Source of the DNA: an uncultured Lentisphaerales bacterium
GTDB lineage: Bacteria; Verrucomicrobiota; Lentisphaeria; JABSQK01; JAJFLO01
NCBI GenBank assembly: GCA_964615975.1
Contig: CAZTTH010000008.1
Span: 13,814-77,813 of the forward strand
Length of the DNA: 64,000 nt
Direction of reading: 5' to 3'
Numbering within the stretch: the stretch's first letter is position 1; each line of letters begins with the position of its first letter. Of the stretch, positions 3,074 through 20,654 are shown in pieces. A model generated the notes under the pieces. The model saw only the letters and a program-made list of their open reading frames with translations. It was not told where the DNA came from and made no database searches. Both the position numbers and the translations under genes were made by a program.

Positions 3074-3640
3074 TTGAATTATCAACTTATGAAACGTCTA
3101 CTATCAGCGCTTAAAGCCTTCTGGCACATCCTTTGCGGTCGCGAAGAGGCTCCCCCTGTCCCGGTTCAACCAGAGTCAGTAAAACCAGCAACTGCTCCGG
3201 CAACACCTGCAGCGGCGATTACCGCCGCATCCAAATCAGCTTCATCGGATAAACATACATTTCAACACGGCGCCATCTATGCCCTGGTGCTGTTGCAACG
3301 GCATGGCCGCCTGATTGATTTTCTTCAGGAAAAGCTGGACGACTACAGCGACGAACAAATCGGCACTGCCGTCCGTCAAATCCATCATGATTGCCAGGTG
3401 GTTTTCACCGAGAATTTTCACCTCCAGCGTATCCTGCCAGAGGAAGAAGGACAGCCCATAAAATTCGAAAAAGCTGTCGACCCTCTGGCAATCAAACTGA
3501 CTGGCGCCATCCCCGCCGCGCCTCCCTACCAGGGGGTGTTGCGTCACAAGGGATGGAAGATTGGTAAAATTCATTTGCCGGAACGGAGCGGGAAAATCGA
3601 TCCCCACATCATTGCCGCCGCGGAAGTGGAAATCGCTTGA
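3074..3640 (+). CDS. DUF2760-like protein
   Basis: GRLIDFLQEKLDDYSDEQIGTAVRQIHHDC and the C-terminal GVLRHKGWK match my recollection of the DUF2760 family, which is usually encoded next to atypical Hsp70 genes. The start is either TTG 3074 or ATG 3089. Confidence 0.65.
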   Translation: MNYQLMKRLLSALKAFWHILCGREEAPPVPVQPESVKPATAPATPAAAITAASKSASSDKHTFQHGAIYALVLLQRHGRLIDFLQEKLDDYSDEQIGTAVRQIHHDCQVVFTENFHLQRILPEEEGQPIKFEKAVDPLAIKLTGAIPAAPPYQGVLRHKGWKIGKIHLPERSGKIDPHIIAAAEVEIA

Positions 3641-3691
3641 ATCGTATCCCGGGATTAAAGGATGATGATGGTGGTATAACTCATAAATAAA

Positions 3692-3790
3692 CCGTTGAAC
3701 TCATTAACCTGCGAACCTTATAACCTATTAACTCTTTAACCTCTTAACACTGAACCCCATTAACCTTTGAACCTTGAACTTTATTAATCC
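3692..3790 (+). repeat. G-poor tract built from reiterated TTAACC / TGAACY words, directly upstream of the Hsp70 gene
   Basis: Read directly: ttgaactcattaacctgcgaaccttataacctattaactctttaacctcttaacactgaaccccattaacctttgaaccttgaactttattaatcc. Confidence 0.6.
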
Positions 3791-3799
3791 CATACCCCC

Positions 3800-5611
3800 A
3801 TGTCACGTTATATCATCGGCATCGATTTAGGCACAACCAATATCGCCATATCCTATCTGGATCTGGAATCCGACACGCCCACAGTGGAACTCTTTTCCGT
3901 CCCCCAACTGGTGGCGCCGGGAGAGATCGATGCGCTTCCACTGCTCCCCTCATTTCTCTATCTCCCGCCCGAGGCGGATGTGGAACGCGGCATTTATGAT
4001 CTGCCGTGGGCAGAGAAACCCCAACATTGTGTTGGCACGTTGGCGCGCAAGAACGGGCCGCTGGCGCCCGGGAAGGTGATTGCTTCGGCCAAATCCTGGC
4101 TGTGCACACCGACCGTCGATCGGCTGGCGCCGATTCTGCCGTGGGGTCAACCTGCGACGGCAGGCAAGATCTCCCCGATTGACGCGACCCGCTATTATCT
4201 CGAGCATCTCAAAGGCGCTTGGAACCAGCATTTTGCCATGGACGATTCCACCCTCGCATTTGAACAGCAAAAAATCATTGTCACCGTGCCCGCCTCCTTC
4301 GATGCCGTGGCCCGGGAATTGACGGTCAAGGCGGCGGAACTGGCAGGATTGACAATTAATTTGCTTGAAGAACCACAGGCGGCGTTTTACGCCTGGCTGC
4401 ATGAGCATGAGAAGAATTGGCGCAAGATGGTGGCGATCGGCAAGCGCATACTGGTCTGCGATATCGGCGGCGGCACCACCGATTTCAGCTTGATTCAGGC
4501 GGTTGACGATAACGGCAGTGTCGGCCTTGAGCGGGTCGCGGTCGGCAATCACATCCTGCTAGGTGGGGACAACCTGGACCTGGCGCTGGCAGTCTATCTT
4601 TCCGAAAAACTCAAACGCGACAAGGGGATCAAGCTCGATCTCAATCAGTTCACCGCCATGACCCATTCCTGCCGAGAAGCCAAGGAGAAGCTGTTCTCGA
4701 GCGCTAAACCGAAACCGCAGAAAATCACCGTGCTGGGACGCGGCAGCAGTGTCATCGGCGGCACGATCACCACGGAACTTACCTTGGAGGAATTGACCAC
4801 GGTGGTGCTGGAGGGATTTTTCCCCCCCTGCGAGCTAAGTGACCAACCGACAACACAAAAGCGACTGGGATTACGCGAATTCGGCTTGAATTACGAGTCC
4901 GATCCGGTGATAACCAAGCATTTGGCGGCGTTTCTTTCCCGGCACTCAGACACGGCGGGGGCCGCCGGCCTGCCAGAGATGATCCTCTTCAACGGCGGCG
5001 TCACCAAAGCCGACAGCATCTGCCAGCGCATCATCGACAACCTGAGAAAATGGCATGGCAACTCTGAAGCCTCGGAAATCACCGTTCTCACCGGCACGGA
5101 TCCCGACACGGCCGTGGCGATCGGCGCCTGCTGGTATGGTCATGTCAGTATTGGCAAAGGCATTCGCATCAAGGCCGGCAGCGCGTTCTCCTATTATGTC
5201 GGGGTGGAATCATCACAACCGGCAATACCCGGATTTCAACCGCCATTGCAGGGACTGTGCGTAGCGCCATTTGGCCTCGAAGAAGGCAGCACTGTCGATA
5301 TTCCCTACACCGGCCTGGGCCTGGTGGTTGGTGAACGCACCGACTTCCAGTTCTTCGCCAGCACTGATCACAAGGAAGATCAATGCGGTACGATCATCGC
5401 CGATGTCGAAGAAGCCGGACTGCACACCCTGCCGGTGCTGACCGCCGAACTGCCGGCGGATGAAGCCACCATCCCTGCCGGCACCCTCCTGCCTATCCGC
5501 CTCAAGACCGTGCTCACCGAAATCGGCACTCTGCAGCTCTGGTGCCTGGAAGAAAACGGCGACCGCCAGTGGCAGCTCGAATACGAACTCCGCGCCCGCG
5601 ACGCGGATTAG
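3800..5611 (+). CDS. Hsp70-family ATPase (non-canonical, HscC/YegD-like) with a divergent C-terminal region
   Basis: IIGIDLGTTNIAIS (phosphate-1), VCDIGGGTTDFSLI (phosphate-2) and LFNGGVTK (adenosine motif). The C-terminal ~200 aa do not resemble the DnaK substrate-binding domain. Confidence 0.85.
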   Translation: MSRYIIGIDLGTTNIAISYLDLESDTPTVELFSVPQLVAPGEIDALPLLPSFLYLPPEADVERGIYDLPWAEKPQHCVGTLARKNGPLAPGKVIASAKSWLCTPTVDRLAPILPWGQPATAGKISPIDATRYYLEHLKGAWNQHFAMDDSTLAFEQQKIIVTVPASFDAVARELTVKAAELAGLTINLLEEPQAAFYAWLHEHEKNWRKMVAIGKRILVCDIGGGTTDFSLIQAVDDNGSVGLERVAVGNHILLGGDNLDLALAVYLSEKLKRDKGIKLDLNQFTAMTHSCREAKEKLFSSAKPKPQKITVLGRGSSVIGGTITTELTLEELTTVVLEGFFPPCELSDQPTTQKRLGLREFGLNYESDPVITKHLAAFLSRHSDTAGAAGLPEMILFNGGVTKADSICQRIIDNLRKWHGNSEASEITVLTGTDPDTAVAIGACWYGHVSIGKGIRIKAGSAFSYYVGVESSQPAIPGFQPPLQGLCVAPFGLEEGSTVDIPYTGLGLVVGERTDFQFFASTDHKEDQCGTIIADVEEAGLHTLPVLTAELPADEATIPAGTLLPIRLKTVLTEIGTLQLWCLEENGDRQWQLEYELRARDAD

Positions 5612-5789
5612 AGTGGATGCAGTTCACCGTTTGGAACAACGCTATCTGGATCACCCAGGATGAAATTTTAATCCATCCAAAAATTTGCTTGGAAAATGAT
5701 AATTTTGCCGTCACCATCTGACTACCATAACAGATATACTGCACATGAATGATGGCTATTCATCTTCCCGTCAGGTTGGGCAAGGCAGC

Positions 5790-7862
5790 TTAAGCTCGTA
5801 AGTCATCCAGGAATTCTGAGGCTGGTTCAATGCCTGTGACCAGTAAATGATCCCTTGCCCGTGTACAAGCGACATAAAGCAAGTGACGTTCAGTGTCGTA
5901 GACCTCTTGCAAATCGGCATCGTCACCGACTGTTTCAATACGTTCCTGTAAGGGGATAATCTCGTCATCACAGGATATCACGGCCACGGCGCGGAATTCA
6001 AGCCCCTTGGCCAGGTGCATGGTGCAGATCGATACATGACCACTGCTCGTCTCGACATGGTCATCGAGGATATTGAATGGCAAACCCGACTCCTTGACTG
6101 CATCTTGAGCTCGTTCCAGTTGCCCTGGTGAACGCACGAAGACGCCGAATTCATGGGGTAGGAGACCGGCTTTCGTGAGCTCGGCAATCCATGTACCAAC
6201 AGAACTTATTTCGTCATTTTCACTCTTGAACACGCGAATGTCGGGTAATGGACCATTGAAGATCGAAATTGTATCGCTCCGATCTTCTCGATTGCCGTCC
6301 ACATCAGTAACTTCCGGACCAAGCAGACGATCAGCTTGCTGGCGGATTTGATGGGATGTGCGATAATTGATTCGCAGCGTGCGGGAACGACCGCGGATAT
6401 CAACACCGAGTGATTTCCAGGAGAAGGGTTGTTGGAAAATACGCTGACCAAGATCACCGGCAAAGAATAAAGCGTTGGAGCGCTCACCACCAAGCACGGC
6501 AAGGAAGCGGAGTTGTGAAACACTGAGATCCTGTGCCTCGTCAACAACTACAAAATCGAAGGGTAGCTTTTTGCTTTCCACCAATGTGGACGACAAGGCA
6601 GTGAAAATCCCCGCATGAGTGGATAACTTCCGCTCTTTCAATCCACTGCTGACCTGCTCAAAGATAGACCAGAGTACCACTCGTCGCTTTTCGGGCAGCC
6701 GGGTTTTGCGGCCAAGGCGGGCTACATCGCGGTAAGACTCCCATGTTTCCAATTGCCACGCATCGACGACTTGTTCCCATTCGGTAACCAGGAAATGCAG
6801 ACTGAACTTGTGATCTCCCACCACTTTCGCCGCGACATTGAGCAATTCCCGCACGATATCACGAGTGGCCAGGTTCACCTTGCCACATTGTGATTTAAAG
6901 AGTCGGAGACCGATGGCATTCAGGGAGTAAACTTCAATGCGTTCGACAAGACGCGGTTCGTTGCCGACCAATCGTTTTAGCTTGGTACGAAGCGCATTTG
7001 CCAGCGTGTCGGAAAAGGTTGTGAGCAGGATGCGGGCATCGGGATAGGCGCGGGCCAGATACACTGCCCGATGCAACGCCACAATCGTCTTTCCGGTTCC
7101 AGCCGATCCTGAAACACGGGATGGTCCATTTTGGTCGCGTTCCACCCATTGACGCTGTTCGGGATGGAGAAAAACAGTCCACTTCTCCCAGGGGAAATCG
7201 AGAGCACATTGAAGCTCTTCGATATTGTTCATCACCCGGAAGCGGCGTTGCGCATCGGGGTGATCAAACGGACTTGCAATCGGCATGGCCGGTTGAATCA
7301 CTCGCGGTTTGCCACCGGTGGCAAGTTCCAGGAGCGCTTCAGCCGCTTCCCCGGGCAGACGTTCCGCTAACAATAACAGGCTGTCTTCATTAACCTGGCG
7401 CACATCATTCAACCATTCTGCCGGCACGCCATAGCCAAGCAGTTCTTCATCGGAATTGGCGGTAAACAGGGGTGGTTTCGGTAGCGCCGGCAATTCCTGT
7501 TGCACATACACTGGTACATAGACCTCCTTCACCGTCTCGCGAATTTCCACGAGCTGAGCCGCCCCCGTCTTGGGATGCGTTTCCAGTTTCCGGCGTTGCG
7601 CCCAATTATAGGCTTTATCGTGGTGATCGACATAACAGAGCATCAAACTGGTACCGGTTTTGTGAACGATGAGCCGAATATCACTGGTTGCTCGAATCGA
7701 CCAGAAGTTGGCATCTTTGGCGCCCTCAATACGATGGCATTGCATCCCGGGATTGAGGGGATTCATCTGCAGGTCAAATGCCGTTGTCTTGACCGCTTTC
7801 TGCTCATCGCCGGTCAGGCGTGCAAGGCTATCGGTGAAGGTGGCGGCAATGCGGAAGTTCAT
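5790..7862 (-). CDS. SF1 UvrD/Rep-like helicase with an N-terminal RelE/ParE-like domain
   Basis: Helicase motifs: GSAGTGKT (I), VVVDEAQDLS (II), FFAGDLGQRIF (III), INYRTS (IV), TMHLAKGLEFRAV (V) and LLYVACTRARDHL (VI). The GAGGA Shine-Dalgarno sits about 7 nt upstream of the ATG. The first ~95 aa (FWSIRATSDIRLIVHKTG..LMLCYVDHHDKAY) look toxin-fold-like. Confidence 0.85.
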   Translation of the reverse strand: MNFRIAATFTDSLARLTGDEQKAVKTTAFDLQMNPLNPGMQCHRIEGAKDANFWSIRATSDIRLIVHKTGTSLMLCYVDHHDKAYNWAQRRKLETHPKTGAAQLVEIRETVKEVYVPVYVQQELPALPKPPLFTANSDEELLGYGVPAEWLNDVRQVNEDSLLLLAERLPGEAAEALLELATGGKPRVIQPAMPIASPFDHPDAQRRFRVMNNIEELQCALDFPWEKWTVFLHPEQRQWVERDQNGPSRVSGSAGTGKTIVALHRAVYLARAYPDARILLTTFSDTLANALRTKLKRLVGNEPRLVERIEVYSLNAIGLRLFKSQCGKVNLATRDIVRELLNVAAKVVGDHKFSLHFLVTEWEQVVDAWQLETWESYRDVARLGRKTRLPEKRRVVLWSIFEQVSSGLKERKLSTHAGIFTALSSTLVESKKLPFDFVVVDEAQDLSVSQLRFLAVLGGERSNALFFAGDLGQRIFQQPFSWKSLGVDIRGRSRTLRINYRTSHQIRQQADRLLGPEVTDVDGNREDRSDTISIFNGPLPDIRVFKSENDEISSVGTWIAELTKAGLLPHEFGVFVRSPGQLERAQDAVKESGLPFNILDDHVETSSGHVSICTMHLAKGLEFRAVAVISCDDEIIPLQERIETVGDDADLQEVYDTERHLLYVACTRARDHLLVTGIEPASEFLDDLRA

Positions 7863-7932
7863 GAACTTTCCTCACCCGTCACTTACAATCGTTTTCAGTT
7901 TTCATCTCAGGATATCCTCGATATAACTCGGA

Positions 7933-8361
7933 TCATTTAGCATAATGGCATTCCATAACAGTATCGGCGATCAGTTGTGCTATAGTCAGATTATCTTGAT
8001 GAGAAATCCCATGAATTCCGCTATGAGACGGATCATTGTCTTCAGGTTCATGAATGAACTGCAACTGACGCGAATCATTCGATTCATTTTTTACAAAATT
8101 CCTGGTGTTTCCAACATTCACCACTGCAAACATACCCGTTGATGCCACATTGAATTTTTTAGCAAAAATTCGTCTTACTTCTTCAATTTCTTGAACACGA
8201 GAAGTTTTCTTGAGATATTCCAGCCAATTCACGGACAGATAAGTTTCATCATCTCGAAGCATGAATGAGGCACCGGTTGGTAGTCCAGTGGAAGGTGAAA
8301 GACTCCGAGGTTTACAATATCTTGAAACGTGATCGGAATCCTGGATAATGTCATTTCTCAT
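7933..8361 (-). CDS. hypothetical protein (142 aa), last gene of a three-gene operon
   Basis: The ORF overlaps the upstream gene by 11 nt. I recognise no family. The conserved-looking C-terminal HEPEDNDPSHSGIHGI may be catalytic. Confidence 0.55.
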   Translation of the reverse strand: MRNDIIQDSDHVSRYCKPRSLSPSTGLPTGASFMLRDDETYLSVNWLEYLKKTSRVQEIEEVRRIFAKKFNVASTGMFAVVNVGNTRNFVKNESNDSRQLQFIHEPEDNDPSHSGIHGISHQDNLTIAQLIADTVMECHYAK

Positions 8362-9067
8362 TGATCGTCGTCCATCGTTCTGTATTGAAGGGCGTTATGA
8401 GTTGACGAAAATCTTTCATGCCACATTTTCCTGAATTCCTAATTATTCCGTCCTGAGACGGAGAAAATATCAAATAATTAAGGTTATAATCCGAAAGAAA
8501 CTCAATGGTCAGATTTCGGGATTTATCTTTGCGCCATTGACAGATAATTGTCCCATTAGGGGATGCCATAATGTCAGGATGACAAAGGTCTTTATTCTGG
8601 GATAAAAATCGCAAGCAAGCGCCGACAGATGTTGCACTTAATTTCGTTTCCTCTAGATCTTCGGCGAGAAGGTCATTCAATTCTGTAATGCGAGCCAGCA
8701 CTTCATCTTTCTTTAACAGTGTTCGGCTTGAAAGGCGAAAGTCTATTAATGTTGCTCGAACTTTGTCATATTCTGACCTTATATCTCCTAAAATAGCCAT
8801 GGAAGTATTTTCCGAGGATTCGATTTCAGCTATGATTGCTTTGTCCTCTGGGCAAACACTCAAATAGATCATGGGTGTAAAATAATTCCGCGGTTTGATA
8901 GATGAGAACGAGGTTTTGGGGTTGAGAGATGATTCCCACTGGGCAAGAATTGAATAATCCGTTTGTCTTCGAGATAACAACAATGATTGTACTTGATATT
9001 CATCTTGATCGAATAGTGCTTCGCGGGTTAAGTCAAAATCATCCTTGTATGCGACTGCGGCAGTCAT
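8351..9067 (-). CDS. hypothetical protein (238 aa), middle gene of a three-gene operon
   Basis: An ATGA start/stop overlap with the upstream gene (9064-9067) indicates translational coupling. No recognisable motif. Confidence 0.55.
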   Translation of the reverse strand: MTAAVAYKDDFDLTREALFDQDEYQVQSLLLSRRQTDYSILAQWESSLNPKTSFSSIKPRNYFTPMIYLSVCPEDKAIIAEIESSENTSMAILGDIRSEYDKVRATLIDFRLSSRTLLKKDEVLARITELNDLLAEDLEETKLSATSVGACLRFLSQNKDLCHPDIMASPNGTIICQWRKDKSRNLTIEFLSDYNLNYLIFSPSQDGIIRNSGKCGMKDFRQLITPFNTERWTTINEK

Positions 9068-9858
9068 TTATCCTTCCTCCCCCAGAATTTTTTTTGGATA
9101 TTAATATCAGTAAAATCGCAAAATCCATAAACAATCCATTCATGCGCCAGGTCAAACCACTCCTCCATACGCTTATAACTGACGTCTCCACCCAAACCTT
9201 TAGCTGATAATTCGAGAATGTAAATAGGACTACCGTCCGTTTGTCTTTGACTAAAGCTCAAGCTTACCGTCAGTCGTCCAAAATCTTCAGGTAATGTAAA
9301 GATACCTCTCCATGCGTTTGATTCTGGTCCCGGCAGGAATCGGTCTTCATTTCGCCAAATCAAATCGGGGGCGAAATTTCCAACTTCTGCCGGCGTTTGC
9401 CATATGTCACCTATAGGTATGTGGTTGATGTAAGACAGTTCGCATTTCTGAATGTTGGGCTTGGGTATTTCTTGTTCGGAGAGAAAGGTACAAAATTCCT
9501 TAAGTTGATTCCAAAATTCGTTAATGACATTGGAATATCGCGGATAGGTTTCGTCACCTGTGATCCGCCGCCAATTAAACACGAAACAATTTCTCTGAAT
9601 TTGGATCAGCGATGTTTGGGTTGAGTTCAATAACCAAACACGCGGCCATGGCAGATCGTTCTCTGGGTCTAATGGTAAAAGTGGTTGTGCATGTTCACAA
9701 TGGGGATATCGCTCCTGAATTCTATCCCAATAACGTCCAATATGAGGAAGTTTGAATCCCGCCAATGATTTAAAATAAACACCAGCCACCACCTCATTGA
9801 TAGGCGGAGTTTCAAAATCCGGTAATTGTGTTTGTATGTCTTTTTTGTTTTTCTTCAT
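9064..9858 (-). CDS. TIGR04255-like uncharacterised protein (264 aa), first gene of a three-gene operon
   Basis: The N-terminal PPINEVVAGVYF, the length and the overall pattern resemble the TIGR04255 family as I recall it. Assigned from memory, not from a search. Confidence 0.55.
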   Translation of the reverse strand: MKKNKKDIQTQLPDFETPPINEVVAGVYFKSLAGFKLPHIGRYWDRIQERYPHCEHAQPLLPLDPENDLPWPRVWLLNSTQTSLIQIQRNCFVFNWRRITGDETYPRYSNVINEFWNQLKEFCTFLSEQEIPKPNIQKCELSYINHIPIGDIWQTPAEVGNFAPDLIWRNEDRFLPGPESNAWRGIFTLPEDFGRLTVSLSFSQRQTDGSPIYILELSAKGLGGDVSYKRMEEWFDLAHEWIVYGFCDFTDINIQKKFWGRKDK

Positions 9859-9969
9859 TGATTTATCCTTATGTTTTTGGGTCTAACCAATTTCATATAT
9901 AACATTAACAAAATTAAGATAGACAATTCAATCCGTCTGAGGTCTGTATTTTACCCACACTGACCAAAA

Positions 9970-10125
9970 TCACCTGTCCTTTGCCCTGTCGAGTTTATAG
10001 AAGATCAGTGCCAATCTTGCCAGGTTAACCTGCAAATCAAATGCTGTCGTCTGAACTGCTTTCTGCTCATCGCCAGTCAGGCGTGCAAGGCTATCGGTGA
10101 AGGTGGCGGCGATACGGAATTCCAT
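9970..10125 (-). pseudogene. 5' fragment of a second, diverged helicase allele (N-terminal 33 codons, then unrelated sequence and a stop)
   Basis: nt 10030-10125 align without gaps to nt 7767-7862, with 84/96 identical by hand count. It translates to MEFRIAATFTDSLARLTGDEQKAVQTTAFDLQV, versus MNFRIAATFTDSLARLTGDEQKAVKTTAFDLQM in the helicase. Confidence 0.85.
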
Positions 10126-10242
10126 TTCTTATTTCTAAACTTATTTATTTTATTTATAAATTTTTATTTTCAAAACAAGCGTTTTTGCAATGAGTTATGA
10201 TTTTCTTATAAATATTTTTTTATTAAAATCGCTGTTTTATTT

Positions 10243-11898
10243 CTAAATAAGATGCCATTTCGGGTATTTTCGCGATCCTTCATTCCGGATTAAGTCCTCC
10301 CTTGCCATCGACTGAATCAGGTTAGTTACTTTGTTACGTTTCCGATCATCATCCAGGACATCAGATAATTTGCTGAATAAGAGCTTATCGATATCCTGGC
10401 GTGTGGCATGGCCATACTTCCGAATGAATTCCAGAATCATCTGCTTGTAATGTGCATCGTCGAAAGCGCGGTTTTTTATATACTGTGCTTTATCTCCAGT
10501 GGCCGAGGCGATATGCGCTGCCACGTATAGATTGGGATAACGGCCTTCAATAAGTTTATCATTTCGTAGCATATTCGCTTCATCTTTGGATACTGCTTGT
10601 CGTTTCTGAATTCGGTCTAATAAAATCACTTTGCTCAGCGGCAAATCTTTCTGATCCATAAGCATGACGGTGTAATTAGGGTCAATCACCTGGCCATGTA
10701 TGGTTACGATTACTTTACCCGGTGTCGATAGATTGAAATCGGGTAACGGATAAAATCGCTTGCGTTGCTCCTGGAACATCCGTCGAATGCCATATCCCAT
10801 GGTATCGATCATATTCACATTCACCATGGCGTCTGCGAGAAAACGATTACGATAGCGCTCTGGGGTCTTTTCCCGCAACGTATAATCCTCAAGCCCACCT
10901 TCGAAAAAATCTCCCGCACTCTCAAATACCAAACGATCAGGTCGCTCCGCGACAATTATCCGCGCTTGCTGGCGGTAATCCTGATGGGCAATCGCATTAT
11001 GCATTGCTTCCAGTACCACCCATTTTTCATACTTGGGGACTTCAAATGGAACCAGTTGACCGGGGACATCAAGCTTTTGCATGGTATTACGAATCCGGGC
11101 ATAACATTCACTGGTAGTCAGGAGAAATGGCGGACTGAAGTGTTCGTATGCCTGTTCCGTTCCTTCCAGTTTCCAGGTGATTTGCGCTACTGCCGGTTCC
11201 AGATGATAAGCCGCTTCTTCTCGCCCCAGCAACAGCAGACATGCACGGGTAATCGCGCCGTTCTTTGTCAATTTGGCTTTATCCAGCAATGTCGTATTCG
11301 ACCATGAATCAATCTCTCCGGCAAAGTACTTGTTTCGATTTTTATCACGAAAGTTCCGCCGAGCCGCCACGATTGCCTCCGAATTCAAGTCGTCAATAGT
11401 GGCTTGTGAACAGATTTCTGCTGACCAATCATCAAGCACTGCTTGTGACCGAATCTGCTCCAACTCATGAAGACTTAAGGCGACCAGCGACTCCCCATCG
11501 CGACCATACCAATGCCCTTTGAAGGAGACCGGCAACCCGGGCGGCGCCGCGGGAACCTGAAACATAATGACCCGGCCAGCGGCATGATACGCAATGTGAA
11601 TATCGATAAAACTCATGCGATTGGTTTGATTGGCAATTTCATGTTTAAGGCTATTCAAATAGTCTGCTTTGTCGCGATAACGACTCCCACAAATGCTCCG
11701 ATCATCATTGGCGATGCCGAACACCAGCCAGCCACAGGGTTGATGCTTGAGGTTTGCTTCATTCGCCAACGCTGAAAAATATTGCCCCAGTTTATCGAAG
11801 GAGAAATCATTTTTCGCTTCTTTGAACTCCACCCATTCCGTTTCATGGGGAAGCTGTCGTAGTTCATCAAGTTTATCAAGTAATTGCTGATTCGTCAT
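10243..11898 (-). CDS. AlbA_2/Schlafen-like (divergent AAA) DNA/RNA-binding protein with a RecG-C-terminal-like ATPase/wHTH region
   Basis: ETEWVEFKEAKNDFSFDKLGQYFSALANE is the hallmark N-terminus of the AlbA_2 family. The start overlaps the mod stop by 4 nt. Confidence 0.75.
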   Translation of the reverse strand: MTNQQLLDKLDELRQLPHETEWVEFKEAKNDFSFDKLGQYFSALANEANLKHQPCGWLVFGIANDDRSICGSRYRDKADYLNSLKHEIANQTNRMSFIDIHIAYHAAGRVIMFQVPAAPPGLPVSFKGHWYGRDGESLVALSLHELEQIRSQAVLDDWSAEICSQATIDDLNSEAIVAARRNFRDKNRNKYFAGEIDSWSNTTLLDKAKLTKNGAITRACLLLLGREEAAYHLEPAVAQITWKLEGTEQAYEHFSPPFLLTTSECYARIRNTMQKLDVPGQLVPFEVPKYEKWVVLEAMHNAIAHQDYRQQARIIVAERPDRLVFESAGDFFEGGLEDYTLREKTPERYRNRFLADAMVNVNMIDTMGYGIRRMFQEQRKRFYPLPDFNLSTPGKVIVTIHGQVIDPNYTVMLMDQKDLPLSKVILLDRIQKRQAVSKDEANMLRNDKLIEGRYPNLYVAAHIASATGDKAQYIKNRAFDDAHYKQMILEFIRKYGHATRQDIDKLLFSKLSDVLDDDRKRNKVTNLIQSMAREDLIRNEGSRKYPKWHLI

Positions 11899-14800
11899 GG
11901 GTTCACCCGGAATACCTTCATTACCTCGTCTCCAAGATGGTTGATTACTTTGATGGCGATGCGGCCGGACTTCGGCTTCTCGAATGGGCGGGAGGTGTCA
12001 CTGTTCAGAGTGGCCCAGGCGTCGGCGTTGATCTCGGCTTTGAGAGTGGTCTTGAGGGCGCTGTAGGGATCGTTGGCGCCAAGGAAATATGCATGGCGGA
12101 CAAAGAAGCTTTCTTCATTGTAATCGGTGTCGATGAACCAGCAGGCAATGCCATCGGTATTGCAGCTTTCTACTTCACCGGTTTGGGGTTTGAAGACATC
12201 CACTCCATTTACAGTGACCTGGAAATAGTGGCGAGTGGTCAGGGGAGAGTGGATAGCGATTTGATCAATGCGTTTAGCATTTTGTTGATCTTGGCACAAT
12301 TGTTCAATAAGTTTTCGCAGTCCTTCCTGGAAAGAAGTTCCAGCCTTTCGGACAAGATCAGAAAGGTTTCCAACTCCGCCAGCGATCCCCGCGCAATGCC
12401 AAGCGATTGTAGAAACTCCCCCGTGCTCCTGCGGGCCTGCCCTTCGGCGATGTTTGCCGGGACGGAGGTCACTGCCCGTCGCATTTGTGATGTAATCCCA
12501 TATCTCTCGGCGGCAGGAAAGCTGCGCGTAATCGCGTAGGTCTGCACCGCCAAGTCGATTGATTTCTGCCAGACTATTAACTCCCGATATGAGCTTATAG
12601 ATTTCATAAGGTGCTATTCTCCTTTCTGAACTATCCACTAACCACTCTTCACTTGCCACTTCAATATCAGGTTCCCCGAATATCACAAACAAGTTGCCTT
12701 TGCCGGTGTTCTTGAGATCTTCAGCCATGTGGAGGTCGGCGTTCATGCGGGCTTTGAGCACTGGGATGCGGCCCAGCTTCTTGAATTCGGTGGTGTGCGC
12801 TTCGTAGTTAAAAGCGCAGACGATCAAGACATCAAACCCGGCATCGCCGGCTTCGCGGGCGGCGGCGACGAGATCGGCGCGCTGGACGGTGCCGAACTCG
12901 GGGCCGATGAAGATTCCAGCACGGATTTCCGTGCCGGAATCAGTGGATAGTGAGGAGTGGTTAATGGCATATTTTTCTTGTTGATCACCCTTCACTAACC
13001 ACTCACCACTTGCTTCAAACCGCCCTTCGGCGCAGACCAATTCGCCCGGCCAGGGAACCAACGAGGTGAAAGTGATCCGATCCTCCTTGTGCGCCTGCTG
13101 CACCCCTGCGGTCTTGAGGTTTTCCAGAACCATCTGGGGGAATGACTGCTTTCCATATTCGACACCGCCTTCCAACATGGTGTCGATCAATTCGTCGTCC
13201 TCGTCGACCCCGAGCACACGATGAGGTGAAAGACTCTCCACGGTGAAGGGACCGGCGACGCGGACTGTCTTCTTGTCCTCATAGGGTTTGTCGTAGAGAT
13301 ATTCGACATCAGCCTTGGCGGAAATCGACGCATCAATTTCCTTTTGGCGGGCAATTCGTTTGTGCCACCAGTCGGAATGCAGCTTCAGAATGTGGGACAG
13401 ACATTCTTGTCTGTCTTTAGGGGGGAGTTTGGCGGTGGAAGAAGCAGACAGGAATGTCTGCTCCACACTGGCAGATTCGCGCGGAATTTCCCATTCTTCC
13501 CATTTCATATTAAGCGCGGTATTGAGCTCTGCTCGAAGAAATTCCAGCTCTGGTTGGAATTTCTCCCAGATAACATCGATCTCGGCGTTGTTGGCGATGG
13601 ACTTGAGCGTGATGTGTGGCACACGTTCATAGACGAAGCCGTGGCGGATGTTCCCCTGCACCGGTTGCGAACTTGGGGCGGTGCGAGTGACTTCGGCTTC
13701 CTTGAGCTGACCTTCAATGGAATCGACTAGTAGGTAAAAGGGATACCGTGCGCCCATGATGCGAGCACGGGCCAATGCCAGCGCCACGCGTGAGGTGTCG
13801 ATCGTGATCCAACGGCGCCCCCATTGCTCGGCGACGGTGGCGGTGGTACCAGAACCGCAGGTCGGGTCAAGTACGAGGTCACCGGGATCGGTGGCCAAGA
13901 GAAGGCATCGTTTTATTGCTTCTGTAGCAGTCTGAACGACAAAAATCTTTGGATCTGCACGGCTTTGAATGCCCCCGATATCATCCCAGACGTTTGAAAG
14001 TGTATGAACGGGAAAATCTTCAATGTAGCGAACGTAATTTAATATCTGCTTGCTCGGAGAAATACGATTTGCCAATTCGAGTCTGGCCATGCCATTGGGT
14101 GTTGTCTTCCAACTGCCTTGGTGTTCGCAGTTTCGTAGTGTCACTAACACTACTGGGTTTGCTTCTGACGTTGTCTTGTCGAGACGGAAAATTCGTGACG
14201 CGGGCGGGAAGGCATCAGGGAATTTTTCACTCGCTTGTTTTAGTGTAATTCTTGTTCCATCTGGTAGTTCGACTCCGTTGTATTTTGTGCCGCCATGTTC
14301 TCCTGGTCTCTTCTCGGCGTACAGATGCCGTGCTTTCGCATGGGTCTTATGCTTTGCGAACCAGAGAATGAAATCGCATTTGTTATTCACGAAGTCTTGA
14401 ACAAGACCTCCTGTCTTTACGAATGTGATTTGGCTGACACAATTCTCTTCTCCGAAGACCTCATCCATCACTGCCCGGACACGGTGAACATTTTCATCGC
14501 CGATCTGGACGAAGATGGAGCCGGAATCTGTTAACAAGTCACGGGCCACTGTCAACCGGTCCCGCAGGTAGGTAAGGTAGCTATGGATGCCTTCGCGCCA
14601 GGTATCGCGAAAGGCTTTAACTTGTTCGGGTTCACGTGTAATATGATCAACCTTGCCGTCCTTCACATCACGGCTGGTGGTGGACCACTGGAAATTGCTA
14701 TTGAACTTGATGCCATAAGGCGGATCGATATAGATGCACTGCACCTTGCCGCGCAACCCCTCGCGCTCGGCCAGGCTGGCCATGACCTGGAGGGAGTCGC

Positions 14801-15230
14801 CGAGGATCATGCGGTTGGACCAATTCTGATCGTGTTGATAGAACTCAGTCTTGTCCACGCCCTGAGGAATGCCATTAAAATCCGCGAATAAGTCTGGCTG
14901 CCACGATTCGGTGGAGTGATTAGTGGATAGTGAAGAGTGGCGCAGTAGATCGTCAATCAATACCTTGGGGTGAATTTTCTCCTGAATGTATAACGGCGGG
15001 GCATGGACAACGAGATCGCTCCAGTCCTGTTCATCCTTGCCGCGCCAAACGAGTTGGGGATCGAGATCGGTGTTGCGGGGATAACGCACCTGCTTGGGGT
15101 TCTGCTGCTCCTTCTCCAGCACCGACTGGTATTCGGCGGTGGGAATGTTCTTGCGCGTCGCGTCGTCGTGCTTGAGTGTTTCGACTGTCTTGGTTTTATT
15201 GTTTGCATTGGCCATGTTATTAAATCCCAA
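11895..15230 (-). CDS. mod: type III-like N6-adenine DNA methyltransferase (Mod), 1111 codons including several in-frame insertions
   Basis: IYIDPPYGIKFNSNFQ (motif IV, DPPY), LVLDPTCGSGTTATVAEQWGRRWITID (motif I), and the conserved C-terminus CWFIDTDYNEESFFVRHAYFLG...IAIKVINHLGDEVMKVF. Confidence 0.85.
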   Translation of the reverse strand: MGFNNMANANNKTKTVETLKHDDATRKNIPTAEYQSVLEKEQQNPKQVRYPRNTDLDPQLVWRGKDEQDWSDLVVHAPPLYIQEKIHPKVLIDDLLRHSSLSTNHSTESWQPDLFADFNGIPQGVDKTEFYQHDQNWSNRMILGDSLQVMASLAEREGLRGKVQCIYIDPPYGIKFNSNFQWSTTSRDVKDGKVDHITREPEQVKAFRDTWREGIHSYLTYLRDRLTVARDLLTDSGSIFVQIGDENVHRVRAVMDEVFGEENCVSQITFVKTGGLVQDFVNNKCDFILWFAKHKTHAKARHLYAEKRPGEHGGTKYNGVELPDGTRITLKQASEKFPDAFPPASRIFRLDKTTSEANPVVLVTLRNCEHQGSWKTTPNGMARLELANRISPSKQILNYVRYIEDFPVHTLSNVWDDIGGIQSRADPKIFVVQTATEAIKRCLLLATDPGDLVLDPTCGSGTTATVAEQWGRRWITIDTSRVALALARARIMGARYPFYLLVDSIEGQLKEAEVTRTAPSSQPVQGNIRHGFVYERVPHITLKSIANNAEIDVIWEKFQPELEFLRAELNTALNMKWEEWEIPRESASVEQTFLSASSTAKLPPKDRQECLSHILKLHSDWWHKRIARQKEIDASISAKADVEYLYDKPYEDKKTVRVAGPFTVESLSPHRVLGVDEDDELIDTMLEGGVEYGKQSFPQMVLENLKTAGVQQAHKEDRITFTSLVPWPGELVCAEGRFEASGEWLVKGDQQEKYAINHSSLSTDSGTEIRAGIFIGPEFGTVQRADLVAAAREAGDAGFDVLIVCAFNYEAHTTEFKKLGRIPVLKARMNADLHMAEDLKNTGKGNLFVIFGEPDIEVASEEWLVDSSERRIAPYEIYKLISGVNSLAEINRLGGADLRDYAQLSCRREIWDYITNATGSDLRPGKHRRRAGPQEHGGVSTIAWHCAGIAGGVGNLSDLVRKAGTSFQEGLRKLIEQLCQDQQNAKRIDQIAIHSPLTTRHYFQVTVNGVDVFKPQTGEVESCNTDGIACWFIDTDYNEESFFVRHAYFLGANDPYSALKTTLKAEINADAWATLNSDTSRPFEKPKSGRIAIKVINHLGDEVMKVFRVNP
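12227..12660 (-). mobile_element. IVS-like cassette inside mod: a four-helix-bundle gene bounded by 30-nt imperfect inverted repeats
   Basis: The arms at 12227-12256 (agtggcgagtggtcaggggagagtggatag) and 12631-12660 (ctatccactaaccactcttcacttgccact) are reverse-complementary at 23/30 positions by hand count. They enclose the ORF 12239-12607. Confidence 0.55.
12239..12607 (-). CDS. four-helix-bundle protein (23S rRNA intervening-sequence protein / Avd-like family), nested in mod in a different frame
   Basis: YRELIVWQKSIDLAVQTYAITRSFPAAERYGITSQMRRAVTSVPANIAEGQAR...GSLAELETFLILS is the classic family signature. It has its own AAGGAG Shine-Dalgarno about 11 nt upstream of the ATG. Confidence 0.8.
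   Translation of the reverse strand: MKSISSYRELIVWQKSIDLAVQTYAITRSFPAAERYGITSQMRRAVTSVPANIAEGQARRSTGEFLQSLGIARGSLAELETFLILSERLELLSRKDCENLLNNCAKINKMLNALIKSLSTLP
12942..13013. repeat. 'empty' hairpin made of the same AGTGG/CCACT arm family, in frame within mod
   Basis: agtggatagtgaggagtggttaatgg, a ~19-nt loop, then ttcactaaccactcaccacttgc. The right arm is near-identical to 12636-12657. Confidence 0.6.
13396..13461. repeat. pair of short perfect palindromic hairpins inside mod coding sequence
   Basis: GACAGACA-ttct-TGTCTGTC (13396-13415) and GCAGACA-ggaa-TGTCTGC (13444-13461). Same hairpin family as 15410-15429. Confidence 0.7.
14911..14940. repeat. solo arm of the AGTGG repeat family within the 5' part of mod
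   Basis: gtggagtgattagtggatagtgaagagtgg. The stretch agtggatagtgaagagtgg matches 12942-12960 at 18/19. Confidence 0.55.
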
Positions 15231-15331
15231 AATCAGGTTGTTGTCTACATTTATTCGGCCCGCTAATCACGCAAAACACACGAATGTTCAGTTCTCAGTT
15301 AAGAATGAAGGCTGATTTGCTTGGATTGAAT

Positions 15332-15365
15332 ATTCGTGTCGTTCGTCTGATTCGTGGTTAAATTT
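15332..15365 (+). repeat. three 9-nt direct repeats (ATTCGTGTC GTTCGTCTG ATTCGTGGT) followed by TAAATTT
   Basis: Read directly. It is related to 26662-26718, with the same ATYCGTGT start and GATYCGTGGTTAAATTT end. Confidence 0.6.
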
Positions 15366-15376
15366 GAACGGTGGTG

Positions 15377-15436
15377 AACGGAGGGCGGGTTTTCCAACCC
15401 GCCAAACAAGGCGGACAGGAATGTCCGCCCTCCGTT
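15377..15436. repeat. REP-like double-hairpin element with an alternative 12-bp outer stem
   Basis: GGCGGGTT-ttcc-AACCCGCC (15384-15403) and GGCGGACA-ggaa-TGTCCGCC (15410-15429). The outer stem AACGGAGGGCGG (15377-15388) pairs perfectly with CCGCCCTCCGTT (15425-15436). Confidence 0.7.
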
Positions 15437-15473
15437 ATCCTCAAAATCGATACCTGAGTTGTTACAATATATT

Positions 15474-15707
15474 TTATATTTTGCCATCGCGTTTCAATTC
15501 GATAATCATGTCCTCAAACGAAACTAATGGTTCATCCGCGCGCATATCGAAGGCGGCTAAATCCTCTGTATCCTCCGCCAGCGACAATATTACCGCTTCA
15601 TTAACGAGGTCGGACATCGATCTTGATGTATCAATGGACTTTTGCTGTAATGCTTTATGAATATCCGGTTTTAGGTAAATAGTGGAACGTTTTGATAATA
15701 CTGTCAT
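15474..15707 (-). CDS. ribbon-helix-helix (CopG/ParD-like) antitoxin, now orphaned
   Basis: STIYLKPDIHKALQQKSIDTSRSMSDLVNEAVILSLAEDTEDLAAFDMRADEP is typical of RHH antitoxins that pair with RelE/ParE toxins. Confidence 0.65.
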   Translation of the reverse strand: MTVLSKRSTIYLKPDIHKALQQKSIDTSRSMSDLVNEAVILSLAEDTEDLAAFDMRADEPLVSFEDMIIELKRDGKI

Positions 15708-15777
15708 ATGATAACCTCCATGATTTTATTGATTGAACAATTATAACGTTACATTACCAATCGTGGAATGAAAAATT

Positions 15778-16350
15778 TCAAACTGCCAATCGGTCAGTGA
15801 CTACATCATCGATCATCTTGTTGAACTCGGCTTCAACCTTTTTAGTAAAATCCGCCTCGATCTGATAAACCATGCGTTCGCTCGCCCGGATTTCGCAGAC
15901 CTCTTCAAGCAGTTCCTCGAAGTATCGCCGGTCGAAACGAGTGCCGTGTTTAAAGCGGTCGGAATCGATAGCGAAACCTTTGAGGATGTAGTCCTTTAAC
16001 CGATCGGTAGCCCAGGTACGAAATTGGGTCGCTCGCACGCTTTTGACGCGATACCCAACAGCTATGATCGCTTCGAGGCTGTAAAGCTTCGTACGATACT
16101 GCTTGCCATCAGCGGCAGTTACCGAGGATTCCTCGGTAACTGCTGATTCGATTAGTTCTTGATCGGCGAAAATATTCTTTAAATGCAAGGAGATATTGTC
16201 GGTGGAACACTCATAAAGTTCGGCTATGAGTTTCTGGGTGAGCCAAACATTTTCGTTCTCGAAGCGAACTTCAACGCGAGCCCGCCCATCTTCACTTGCG
16301 AAGATGGTGATATTGTCGATGCGTATAGGTTGCGAATTTTTAGACATCAT
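15778..16350 (-). CDS. RhuM-family protein, truncated and fused to a Res-type C-terminal tail
   Basis: The RhuM core is LYSLEAIIAVGYRVKSVRATQFRTWATDRLKDYILKGFAIDSDRF...EIRASERMVYQ. The last ~25 aa (IEADFTKKVEAEFNKMI) are homologous to the Res C-terminus (IEADFSKKVKFEFDRML). Confidence 0.75.
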   Translation of the reverse strand: MMSKNSQPIRIDNITIFASEDGRARVEVRFENENVWLTQKLIAELYECSTDNISLHLKNIFADQELIESAVTEESSVTAADGKQYRTKLYSLEAIIAVGYRVKSVRATQFRTWATDRLKDYILKGFAIDSDRFKHGTRFDRRYFEELLEEVCEIRASERMVYQIEADFTKKVEAEFNKMIDDVVTDRLAV

Positions 16351-17435
16351 TAACTTCCTTCCTGCATGGATTCTCTGGTCAAAATAGCATTCAAGGCGGT
16401 GTTAATGTAGTAATTAGTCCGCCCTATTTTTTGTTTTTTAAGGAAGCCGCCGCCGGTCAACGCATCGAGATATTTGGTGGCGGTGAGGCGCGACACCTTC
16501 AGATCACGTTCGACGAATTCGATCTTGGTATAGGGGTGGGTAAACAGGTTATTGATCAGATCCTGACTGTAAAACTTGTACTCCGCGCGAATACGGTGCT
16601 TCGCATCCATCAACGCCGCATTAATGGCATGGATGGTTTCGATGGCATCACCGGCGGTTGATTCAATGGCGGTAAGCAGGTAAAGCACCCACTCTTCCCA
16701 TGCATCGTTTTCGCGAACACTCTGAAGCAGTCGATAATAATCCGGTTTGGTGCGGACGATGTGGCGGCTGAGATATAGCACCGGGATATCGAGCAGACCT
16801 TCCTTCACCAAGTAAAGCACATTAACGATGCGGCCGGTGCGGCCATTGCCATCATAGAACGGGTGGATACTTTCAAACTGGTGATGGATCAACGCCATTT
16901 TAATGAGCGGGTCAGCGGCAAATAAATCACGATCATTGATGAAACGCTCAAGATCGCGCATGAGCGCGATAATGGTATCTGGATCTTGCGGCGGCATATA
17001 GATCGCCTGACCAGAGCCATCTTTCAACACAGTCCCTGGCAGTTTGCGGAAACCGGCGTTGTTTTGCTCCAGCTCTACCTGAATCTGAATGATATGGTTG
17101 ATGGTAAGCAGACCACTTTGTTGCACTAGATCGAATCCAACCCGTAAAGCCTGGCGATACCGTAGTACCTCCTTGGCGGCGCCATGGTGCAAGTTCTCGG
17201 GAAAAAGGTCATCTTTATATAATTCGTCATGAGTGGTCACGATGTTTTCTATGGCCGAACTATCCTTGGCCTCCTGTATTCCCAGAGTGTTGATGAGTAT
17301 CCCCTGGTTAGGAATGGAGGCGGCGACTCCCTTGAGTTCAGCTAGTTTACGACTTGTTAAAGCCAATTTTTTAAGGATAACGGGAGTATCGAATCTTATC
17401 GACGGCAAACGATCTAATGGCAGAATGGTGGTCAT
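16350..17435 (-). CDS. Fic-family protein (AMPylase/adenylyltransferase type) with a C-terminal wHTH
   Basis: Fic motif HPFYDGNGRTGR. The stop overlaps the rhuM start. Confidence 0.9.
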   Translation of the reverse strand: MTTILPLDRLPSIRFDTPVILKKLALTSRKLAELKGVAASIPNQGILINTLGIQEAKDSSAIENIVTTHDELYKDDLFPENLHHGAAKEVLRYRQALRVGFDLVQQSGLLTINHIIQIQVELEQNNAGFRKLPGTVLKDGSGQAIYMPPQDPDTIIALMRDLERFINDRDLFAADPLIKMALIHHQFESIHPFYDGNGRTGRIVNVLYLVKEGLLDIPVLYLSRHIVRTKPDYYRLLQSVRENDAWEEWVLYLLTAIESTAGDAIETIHAINAALMDAKHRIRAEYKFYSQDLINNLFTHPYTKIEFVERDLKVSRLTATKYLDALTGGGFLKKQKIGRTNYYINTALNAILTRESMQEGS

Positions 17436-17458
17436 GTTATCCCCTTAACCCCTTGTCG

Positions 17459-17529
17459 ATATGTATATAAAAATAGCGTTTTCTATACATATGGCGCACA
17501 ATGTGTATAGGATATGGCAAGATTGTATA
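17459..17529. promoter_or_regulatory. putative operator array upstream of fic: four TGTATA/TATACA hexamers at 20-22-bp spacing
   Basis: A perfect inverted repeat, ATATGTATA (17459-17467) and TATACATAT (17484-17492), is separated by a 16-nt spacer. Further TGTATA hexamers lie at 17504-17509 and 17524-17529. Confidence 0.4.
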
Positions 17530-17537
17530 CGGATTAT

Positions 17538-20500: not shown

Positions 20501-20654
20501 TCTTCGGTTTGGGAATAGGAGTGATAAACTCAGCCCGGCGACGACTCAGCATGATCCGCTGTGTCGGTTGTCCAGATTTATCCAATTCCCAGTGTCGACT
20601 TGGACACTCATAAGGCGAGTTGAGGATGGGGTGGTCGAAGAAGGGATTGGACAT
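17538..20654 (-). CDS. res: type III-like restriction endonuclease / SF2 helicase subunit (Res)
   Basis: KLATGAGKTTVMAMLIAW (Walker A / motif I), LVINDEAHHCY (DEAH, motif II), and MLTEGWDANTVTHVLGVRAFGTQLLCEQVIGRALRR (motifs V-VI). Confidence 0.9.
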   Translation of the reverse strand: MSNPFFDHPILNSPYECPSRHWELDKSGQPTQRIMLSRRRAEFITPIPKPKKRKQSAAQEEFVFDEGQGLSTKDQQYDPTSNINEVRRHVNAWRALSNPGQWQVSPETTRLLQHWRHHKFGDFRPFFCQIEAVETAIWLTEVAPFYKSSKQLLDYLASANQDANPELMRFALKLATGAGKTTVMAMLIAWQTINAVRRPGSKYFSRGFLIVAPGLTIKDRLRVLQPHDPDSYYASRELVPHDMLDDLKKAKIVITNYHAFKLRERTNLSKGNRQLLKGRTGDDPLTLETEGQMIQRVMPELMGMKNILVINDEAHHCYREKPADDSQFTDSEGNPLSGNALREAREEAAENNKAARLWISGLEKVNRKIGLLRVIDLSATPFFLRGSGYREGTMFHWTMSDFSLMDAIECGIVKLPRVPVSDNIPGADVPLFRNLWENVRSKMPKKKRGQSRLDPLSLPPLLQTALEALYGHYSKTFQCWRERGIPVPPCFIIVCQNTAVSKLIYDFISGFDQLQEDGSFKPVGGRLELFRNHDEHGNPLTRPYTLLIDSAQLESGEGFDDNFRAVAAPEITQFKSQVMERGGPLAEQLREGKDFDDTTLLREVMNTVGKPGTLGSDIRCVVSVSMLTEGWDANTVTHVLGVRAFGTQLLCEQVIGRALRRWSYWLNEEGSDKGLFNVEYADIIGIPFNFTAQPVISPPQPPPQTVRVKAISPERNHLEIIFPRVAGYRVELPDDRLIAQFDQDSILELTPELVGATTTRQSGIIGQTVDLTLDHTREVRPSQILFELTSHLVLNHWRDPGQSAHFNLFGQLKRIAKHWLDTCLICKGRTYPAQLKYKMLADIACERITAGITRAFVGERPIKALLDPYNPTGSTAHVRFNTSRRDRWETSSKSCHINWVILDSDWEAEFCRVAESHPKVHAYVKNHNLGLEVPYRHGSEIRKYLPDFIVRVDDGHGPDDLLHLIVEIKGYRREDAKDKKSAIETYWVPGVNNLGTFGRWAFAEFNDVYQIEADFSKKVKFEFDRMLSMIIHPRPASL

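Follow-up and report, generated by a model that had tools for sequence, protein, structure and literature searches.

The window analysed here is a stretch of 64,000 nucleotides (nt) of contig CAZTTH010000008.1 from an uncultured Lentisphaerales bacterium. Three small genes of its minus strand (positions 7933-9858), designated A, B and C, probably form a self-contained, horizontally mobile, tripartite cassette that resembles a toxin-antitoxin (TA) system and is carried as cargo in a restriction-modification (RM) operon of the BPTD_3080 type. Comparison with related loci indicates that A-B-C is a real, widespread and apparently undescribed cassette. Gene conservation places the core of the unit in the B-C pair and limits it to at most three genes. 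A helicase gene that follows C, and that was counted as a fourth component in the initial annotation, is assigned here to the RM operon.

Conservation and gene order of the cassette

The open reading frames (ORFs) of A, B, C and the helicase are present as first described, and the sequence bears out the junctions reported with them. A and B share an ATGA overlap, B and C overlap by 11 nt, and the ATG of the helicase lies 70 nt past the stop codon of C, preceded by the Shine-Dalgarno sequence GAGGAAA. Promoters and terminators were searched for in positions 5600-10400; none was found above shuffled expectation.

Related loci were surveyed with one genome per species; 113 C-family loci were returned and 80 were kept. 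Neighbouring genes were detected by own ORF calling and iterative hidden Markov model (HMM) searches. The gene upstream of C was recorded in 91 loci (the 80 genome loci, further contigs and the window). It is a B homologue, immediately adjacent, in 89 of them. The spacing of B and C has a median of -4 nt and is within +/-30 nt for 94 of the 97 pairs; an A-B overlap of 4 nt is found in 21 of 33 loci. From these counts, the overlaps seen elsewhere are not due to chance. The three small genes were initially described as one translationally coupled unit; the B-C adjacency and the recurring overlaps uphold this description and show the unit to be conserved. C-family loci span Proteobacteria, Acidobacteriota, Chloroflexota, Rhodothermales, Latescibacterota, Binatia, Nitrospinota and one Nitrosopumilus archaeon.

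Two types of first gene precede B: a TIGR04255 protein (A) in 33 loci and an unrelated protein of about 220 amino acids (aa), designated A', in 28. A' (about 206-276 aa; for example L033 6560-7258 and L074 6643-7323) occupies the same slot before B, has its own set of conserved residues and has no match in Pfam, NCBIfam or PDB. An hhalign comparison of A with A' was not significant (E 0.027, probability 1.8%), and kinship is not claimed. Minimal pairs without any first gene (B of 147 aa, C of 140 aa) are found in Dehalococcoidia. They are often arranged in tandem as two to four diverged B-C pairs (L062 2617-8025; L046 7561-11992; L051; L081); the copies in L046 and L062 share 44-60% identity, and an AIPR (PF10592) abortive-infection gene immediately precedes the array of L062. 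By analogy, tandem diverged B-C pairs resemble toxin-immunity arrays.

The closest relatives of the window cassette are L001-L003, whose C is 66% identical to that of the window. The L001 cassette (4315-7300) lies inside a disrupted alcohol dehydrogenase (ADH)/quinone oxidoreductase gene. Its gene A lacks the 5' end and continues the reading frame of the ADH_N part, to which it is fused, and the C-terminal half of the ADH is inverted downstream of the cassette. A tyrosine recombinase and an IS91-type transposase are encoded upstream. No match was obtained by tblastn of C against plasmids, or by megablast of positions 5600-10300 against Escherichia coli genomes and plasmids.

As initially proposed, no named system in PADLOC, Pfam or PHROGs corresponds to the small-gene unit. 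Searches of A, B and C against PADLOC-DB v2 (Gabija, Hachiman, Nhi, PD-T4-x, PDC candidates and others) gave no match at E <= 0.01. A full-text literature search returned no paper that mentions TIGR04255.

Protein B: a conserved domain and a variable extension

B and C had been called orphans, and neither has a match in Pfam, PADLOC, NCBIfam or PHROGs. The conserved part of B is its C-terminal region of about 150 aa, in which only R126 and W178 are invariant. This domain alone makes up the protein of about 147 aa found in minimal and tandem B-C pairs. All 61 loci with A or A' encode a B with the N-terminal extension (median length 79 aa with A and 104 aa with A'); the 18 minimal B-C pairs, which lack a first gene, have none. 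This distribution marks the B N-terminus as an element that goes with the first gene; a role as adaptor is proposed.

A semi-conserved motif (basic, Ser/Thr, acidic) lies just before the C-terminal domain in A-type loci (window positions 8762-8788, residues about 94-102). In the window its sequence is DIRSEYDK; other loci have ELRTPEG, LRSDDE or LKSEEN, and the adaptors of the 257-aa type described below have IKSETS. It may be a short recognition element.

TIGR04255 proteins as heads of modular cassettes

A subfamily of TIGR04255 proteins of 257 aa was examined in a metagenome scan, which gave 80 loci (L099-L178). A middle gene is present in 76 of these and a third gene in 66. The third genes encode an unknown protein of about 173 aa (38 loci), a PIN protein (26) or a PemK/MazF protein (2). 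In three members that were inspected, the order is TIGR04255 gene, small middle gene, third gene; the neighbours of these three cassettes include HEPN/MNT, AbiE, HicA and CRISPR RAMP genes. The middle protein keeps a conserved N-terminal part (about 90 aa) whichever of the three third genes follows, and its C-terminal half co-varies with the third gene.

Both kinds of cassette meet in the Nitrospinae loci L007-L011. Their A belongs to the 257-aa subfamily; it is followed by the same adaptor (E 1.8e-17) joined to a B C-terminal domain, and then by a C homologue. Judging from this composition, L007-L011 bridge the window-type cassette and the cassettes with PIN, MazF or the 173-aa protein. Because the cassette layout is shared, C takes the place that is occupied elsewhere by genuine type II toxins, and the C-terminal domain of B that of their antitoxins. 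HMMs of B and C showed no homology to the middle and third genes of the PIN and 173-aa cassettes.

The family of about 173 aa (L094 6209-6730; L097 6167-6697; 38 of the loci L099-L178) has a conserved C-terminus, LLPPYREHLSQAFARFFMRVGLP, and no Pfam match. It is a candidate new toxin, as suggested by its position in the cassette.

Protein C: a candidate toxin with a predicted ADP-ribosyltransferase fold

Relatives of C numbered 126 in a word-indexed search and 2178 cluster representatives in a full profile scan; each of the 150 listed stands alone and has about 110-190 aa. The AlphaFold2 (AF2) model has a mean predicted local distance difference test score (pLDDT) of 96.9. The model gave no significant Foldseek match against PDB. 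Its nearest structural neighbours appear to be Tpt1/KptA, DarT (acting on single-stranded DNA), RES and Tne2 (acting on NAD+). The alignment with the ADP-ribosyltransferase (ART) lobe of a 179-aa Tpt1 chain covers 88 residues only. A fold of the ART superfamily is likely but not certain for C, because no significant Foldseek match and no profile link to a known ART family were found.

Thirteen residues of C are invariant in 35 diverse homologues: F33, S43, V44, N45, W46, L47, E48, H104, P106, D110, S112, H113 and G115. The last six belong to the stretch HEPEDNDPSHSGIHG, which had been noted as conserved-looking and proves to be truly so. Strand 1 carries the conserved H11 and R14; strand 2 carries Y41, S43 and N45 and is followed by E48. 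E48, H104, S112 and H113 are invariant or nearly so. A role as secreted polymorphic toxin was considered for C and rejected: no trafficking domains are present, and all of the 150 listed relatives stand alone.

Protein A: a member of the TIGR04255 family

The TIGR04255-like label given to the 264-aa protein is confirmed by a score above the cut-off (44.5 bits, E 1.7e-11; cut-off 30). The match of window A is confined to profile positions 2-136, corresponding to the N-terminal half of the protein; orthologues in cassettes of the same type cover the whole profile, at 73-134 bits. A profile search with A returned 1095 relatives. The AF2 model (pLDDT 91) is a two-lobed antiparallel sheet with helices behind it. 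Pfam has no match to A, and neither a chaperone nor a DNA-binding fold can be recognised in it. When profiles of the A, A', B and C alignments were run against PDB sequences, they gave noise only.

The idea that A is a guanido kinase or an McsB-like enzyme was rejected, as no arginine or kinase-type residue is conserved across both A subfamilies. For the same reason A is read as a binding cradle and not as an enzyme. The 257-aa subfamily (P0155-P0245) has a mean column identity of 70% across distant phyla; its hosts include Methanosarcinales, Syntrophoarchaeum, Omnitrophica, Atribacteria, Nitrospinae and others. Such conservation is unusually strong for a sporadically distributed gene.

The helicase, the restriction operon and the scar

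Gene order on plasmids identifies the helicase as the third gene of a BPTD_3080-type operon (restriction endonuclease, REase; methyltransferase, MTase; helicase) and not as a member of the cassette. Full-length matches that include the N-terminal domain were found 43 times on plasmids. On a plasmid of Pseudomonas avellanae, a helicase 61% identical to that of the window directly follows the REase and MTase genes and overlaps the latter. This trio is contiguous, with no insert and no counterpart of the 551-aa gene of the window; its REase and MTase are 65% and 60% identical to Res and Mod of the window. Window Res scores 1319 bits against NCBIfam NF046055 (cut-off 800). The RM system of the window is thus of the BPTD_3080 type, having an NF046055 REase together with an orthologous MTase and helicase. 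The locus had been called type III-like; its RM nature stands, and it is more specifically a BPTD_3080-family system (NF046055; PADLOC MTase_III).

Plasmids of Gemmobacter and Rhizobium carry the trio in the same order, interrupted by small unrelated genes between its members. In the window, unlike the contiguous trio, Fic and RhuM genes lie between res and mod, and a Schlafen-AlbA_2 gene and A-B-C lie between mod and the helicase gene. The cargo of both junctions differs between the window, Gemmobacter and Rhizobium; the loci compared, with that of P. avellanae, are window positions 10243-20654 and L179, L180 and L182. From these arrangements, the junctions of BPTD_3080 operons look like recurrent insertion sites.

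In the 80 genome loci, in Burkholderia cepacia and in the Nitrospinae-type loci, no helicase homologue was found up to 8 kb to either side of the cassette. Among the 90 C-family loci other than the window, the sole trace is a stub of 24 codons in L001-L003, which belongs to the same helicase family and lies right after C in L001. The claim that the helicase is a fourth component was abandoned on these grounds, namely the lack of a helicase in other C-family loci and the REase and MTase partners that it has on plasmids.

Positions 10125-10030 match the 5' end of the helicase gene (7862-7767) with 87.5% identity over 96 nt. A recombination scar had been reported at 9970-10125 and taken as a sign that cassette and helicase arrived together. 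The duplication itself is genuine; the repeat spans 10030-10125 (96 nt) and not the larger extent, and joint arrival is not borne out, the scar being the old start of the resident helicase gene. The scar is read as insertion into a resident gene because the window holds a single RM trio that has been pried apart; since it is the former helicase start, the cassette was inserted at the mod-helicase junction. The guanine-cytosine (GC) content is about 0.40-0.44 in the cassette, 0.51-0.54 in the helicase gene and about 0.50-0.55 in the methyltransferase gene; the difference of about 10 points between cassette and helicase agrees with insertion. The L001 stub suggests that the mobile fragment consisted of A-B-C and a helicase start. 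Recombination through the short homology of helicase starts would then have produced the repeat that flanks the cassette in the window.

The UvrD-type superfamily 1 (SF1) core of the helicase was confirmed with Pfam. The RelE-like character attributed to its N-terminal domain comes down to a sub-threshold HigB-like Pfam match (E 0.05) of about the first 100 aa. Plasmid orthologues, named '3'-5' exonuclease' in RefSeq, conserve the N-terminal stretch of about 230 aa that precedes the SF1 core; apart from the HigB-like match, this stretch has no family assignment. The profile phrog_1967 partly covers this region, from residue 39, and is uninformative. A tblastn search of the helicase against phages gave weak partial matches only.

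Table 1. Features of the cassette and of the surrounding restriction operon. Positions are those of the window.
Feature	Positions	Strand	Characteristics
Gene A, TIGR04255 family, 264 aa	9064..9858	-	First gene of the cassette; proposed accessory partner of the antitoxin (chaperone- or sensor-like)
Gene B, whole, 238 aa	8351-9067	-	ORF
Gene B, N-terminal extension (residues ~1-88)	8804..9067	-	Variable; proposed adaptor coupling B to A
Gene B, C-terminal domain (residues ~89-238 and stop)	8351..8803	-	Conserved; proposed cognate antitoxin of C
Gene C, 142 aa	7933..8361	-	Proposed toxin/effector; ART-superfamily fold (predicted)
HEP...DPSHSG motif of gene C	8008-8052	-	Conserved among homologues
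UvrD-like SF1 helicase, 690 aa	5790..7862	-	Pfam UvrD-helicase and UvrD_C; third gene of the BPTD_3080-type RM operon, outside the cassette
Truncated duplicate of helicase 5' end	10030..10125	-	Former helicase start; upstream edge of the insertion
Schlafen AlbA_2/HATPase_c_4 protein, 551 aa	10243..11898	-	Pfam PF04326 and PF13749; cargo between mod and the old helicase start
Mod, DNA methyltransferase	11895..15230	-	PADLOC MTase_III, E = 0; BPTD_3080-type operon, context only
RhuM	15778-16350		Between res and mod
Fic	16350-17435		Between res and mod
Res, BPTD_3080-family restriction endonuclease, 1038 aa	17538..20654	-	NF046055 match; context only

Genomic neighbourhood

The window cassette is surrounded by RM, Fic, Schlafen-like, Hsp70/DUF2760 and VapB-like genes. 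The Hsp70/DUF2760 pair of the initial annotation was confirmed with Pfam. A DUF2760 protein (188 aa) and then a divergent Hsp70-like ATPase (603 aa) are encoded at 3074-5611, converging on the helicase gene; the ATPase has a weak PADLOC match to PDC-M61B. At 2068-2600, small ORFs of 89 and 88 aa overlap. They are probably another TA pair, because the N-terminus of the first is VapB-antitoxin-like.

A census without formal control was made of 128 immediate neighbours at 68 other loci. About 8-10 of the 128 have strong PADLOC matches (BrxL, BrxA, Olokun proteins, HamB, NsnA, a type I REase and methyltransferases). The defence-island setting initially described therefore holds in the window and is only modest across homologues. 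This pattern agrees with a TA-like element that is mobile and scattered and now and then inserts into defence islands.

BPTD_3080-like Res and Mod genes adjoin C-family cassettes in B. cepacia (L004 6514-12407) and Bryobacterales (L077 11617-16031). Their Res proteins are about 32% and their Mod proteins 42-44% identical to those of the window; the association may be recurrent or due to chance.

Proposed mechanism

The layout of B-C is that of a type II TA system: the genes are adjacent and coupled, and B has 2 invariant residues against 13 in C. C would be the toxin, a small enzyme of the ART superfamily whose probable activity is the NAD+-dependent modification of a nucleic acid or protein, or else the degradation of NAD+. 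The C-terminal part of B (about 150 aa) would neutralise C, and its N-terminal part (about 90 aa) would be an adaptor that ties B to A. A would hold or stabilise B and may be the signal input. If A were titrated away or B lost, C would be released.

A wider form of this proposal is tentative and, taken as a whole, somewhat doubtful. TIGR04255 proteins would be a new class of third TA component, unrelated to SecB, that docks on the N-terminus of chimeric antitoxins. The warheads would be PIN, MazF, the 173-aa protein and the ART-fold protein, A would be a sensor titrated by phages, and the outcome would be abortive infection. The C family would then be a clade of NAD+-dependent toxins not recognised before, with nucleic acids as possible targets, as for Tpt1 and DarT.

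Several points weigh against the reading of A-B-C as a tripartite TA-like cassette. Toxicity of C, like neutralisation, A-B binding, use of NAD+ and triggering by phages, is inferred. B has no PDB match. Neither the classical H-Y-E nor the R-S-E triad of strands 1, 2 and 5 can be mapped with certainty onto C, the third catalytic position being unassigned. The third genes and the middle C-terminal halves of the PIN, MazF and 173-aa cassettes show no detectable homology to C and B, and only loci of the L007 type bridge the analogy with the window-type cassette directly. Finally, the immediate neighbours in the census are mostly housekeeping genes; a dedicated anti-phage role is for this reason not established, and an anti-phage function of the cassette is plausible but unproven.

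Alternative explanations

The least improbable alternative is that B-C is an ordinary two-gene type II TA system and that A or A' is merely a neighbour often co-transferred with it, or else a transcriptional or unrelated passenger. The minimal B-C pairs, the origin of the first gene from either of two unrelated families and the lack of a recognisable chaperone or DNA-binding fold in A all agree with this. It is nevertheless unlikely: A and B overlap by 4 nt in most loci, the extension of B is found only where a first gene is present, and a TIGR04255 gene is followed by an adaptor-bearing middle gene in 76 of 79 metagenomic loci, with three families of third gene. Quite unlikely, too, is a role of the cassette as functional accessory of the BPTD_3080 RM system (regulator, addiction module or back-up abortive arm). 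The position of the window cassette inside the RM operon, the BPTD_3080-like Res/Mod next to cassettes in B. cepacia (32% and 44% identity) and Bryobacterales, and the small inserts that other RM trios carry at the same junctions would be accounted for. Such RM genes are however near only 3 of about 85 independent cassette loci, the inserts of other trios are unrelated to A, B and C, the P. avellanae trio has no insert, and the cassettes have mainly housekeeping neighbours.

Still a little less probable is that C is a Tpt1/KptA-like enzyme of RNA-end processing or repair, with A and B as cofactors in housekeeping or stress RNA repair. Tpt1/KptA-like enzymes act on RNA ends (PMC11833690), and one cassette neighbour is RtcB and another an RtcR-like regulator. 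Against this, C is a single domain whose 88-residue alignment to the ART lobe of Tpt1 leaves no room for an RNA lobe, and it matches no Pfam family, those of Tpt1/KptA included; the patchy distribution is consistent with horizontal transfer, diverged B-C pairs form tandem arrays, and PIN and MazF toxins occupy the equivalent slot of sister cassettes. Highly improbable, in the end, is the grouping of A, B, C and the helicase as one four-gene anti-phage system that arrived together. All four genes are co-directional, just 70 nt separate C from the helicase gene without a terminator signal between them, and the 24-codon stub after C in L001 implies that an ancestor of this sub-lineage of cassettes adjoined such a helicase. 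Beyond the stub of L001-L003, the surroundings of the cassette contain nothing helicase-like in any of the other 90 C-family loci. The helicase has partners of its own, the BPTD_3080 REase and MTase, with which it is contiguous on plasmids, all three being 60-65% identical to the window genes, and both the GC gap of about 10 points and the scar, a second helicase start, fit insertion into a resident gene.

Implications

If the tripartite TA-like reading is true, a function and an operon logic would be provided for the orphan NCBIfam family TIGR04255, and C would represent a new family of ART-fold toxins with about 2000 sequence clusters. The cassette would also be a second, independently evolved case of the principle known from toxin-antitoxin-chaperone (TAC) systems, in which an accessory protein gates swappable warheads; this principle was recently tied to phage sensing. 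Independently of the model, BPTD_3080-type operons tolerate and accumulate cargo at their gene junctions. Cargo at RM junctions bears on the growth of defence islands and on the automated calling of systems, and the grouping of the helicase with the cassette is corrected.

Comparison with known systems

Gabija, Hachiman and Nhi. The partial GajB-like and NERD+UvrD-like PADLOC matches of the window helicase correspond to a generic SF1 core. A, B and C have no GajA-, HamA- or nuclease-partner match in PADLOC.

TIGR04255. This NCBIfam family has no function on record. Window A passes its cut-off and the orthologues cover the whole profile. What is new is a fold model and a conserved operon logic, in which members of the family head cassettes with an adaptor-bearing middle gene and a third gene of the PIN, MazF, 173-aa or ART-like kind.

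Systems with small ART-superfamily toxins. DarT/DarG, RES-Xre (MbcT/MbcA, Res), ParT/ParS and the effectors Tse2 and Tne2 share with the cassette a small stand-alone ART-superfamily toxin (predicted for C) encoded beside its neutraliser (proposed for B). The signature of RES domains has the order R-E-S, and the conserved R14, E48 and S112 of C occur in this same order. Unlike RES proteins and DarT, C has no profile match to PF08808, DarT or any Pfam family and is not counted as a RES protein. Unlike DarG and Xre antitoxins, B is neither a macrodomain nor an Xre/DUF2384 protein by sequence, and the cassette has an extra first gene. In Tpt1, an N-terminal RNA lobe carries most of the Arg-His-Arg-Arg catalytic tetrad; C, a single domain of 142 aa, has no room for such a lobe and no Pfam or NCBIfam match, and is not placed in the Tpt1/KptA family.

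TAC systems. In TAC, a SecB-like chaperone binds the ChAD element of the antitoxin, phage structural proteins displace the chaperone, and the warheads are interchangeable; the warhead CmdT of CmdTAC is an mRNA-directed ADP-ribosyltransferase (PMC11618068; bioRxiv 10.1101/2024.02.24.581848). TAC systems (CmdTAC = PD-T4-9, HigBAC) and the cassette have in common three genes, a conserved third protein and swappable toxin-antitoxin warheads. An antitoxin extension recognised by the third protein is a further likeness proposed here by analogy, the extension of B co-occurring strictly with the first gene. The two differ in that A is a TIGR04255 protein, modelled as a two-lobed sheet cradle and not as a SecB-like chaperone. 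They also differ in layout: the cassette has the order accessory gene, antitoxin gene, toxin gene, with the putative adaptor at the N-terminus of B, whereas the ChAD element is C-terminal on the TAC antitoxin. The likeness is one of analogy and not of membership, because the parts of the cassette are unrelated to those of TAC. Among known systems, the module is best filed as a tripartite TA system with a putative new family of ART-fold toxins.

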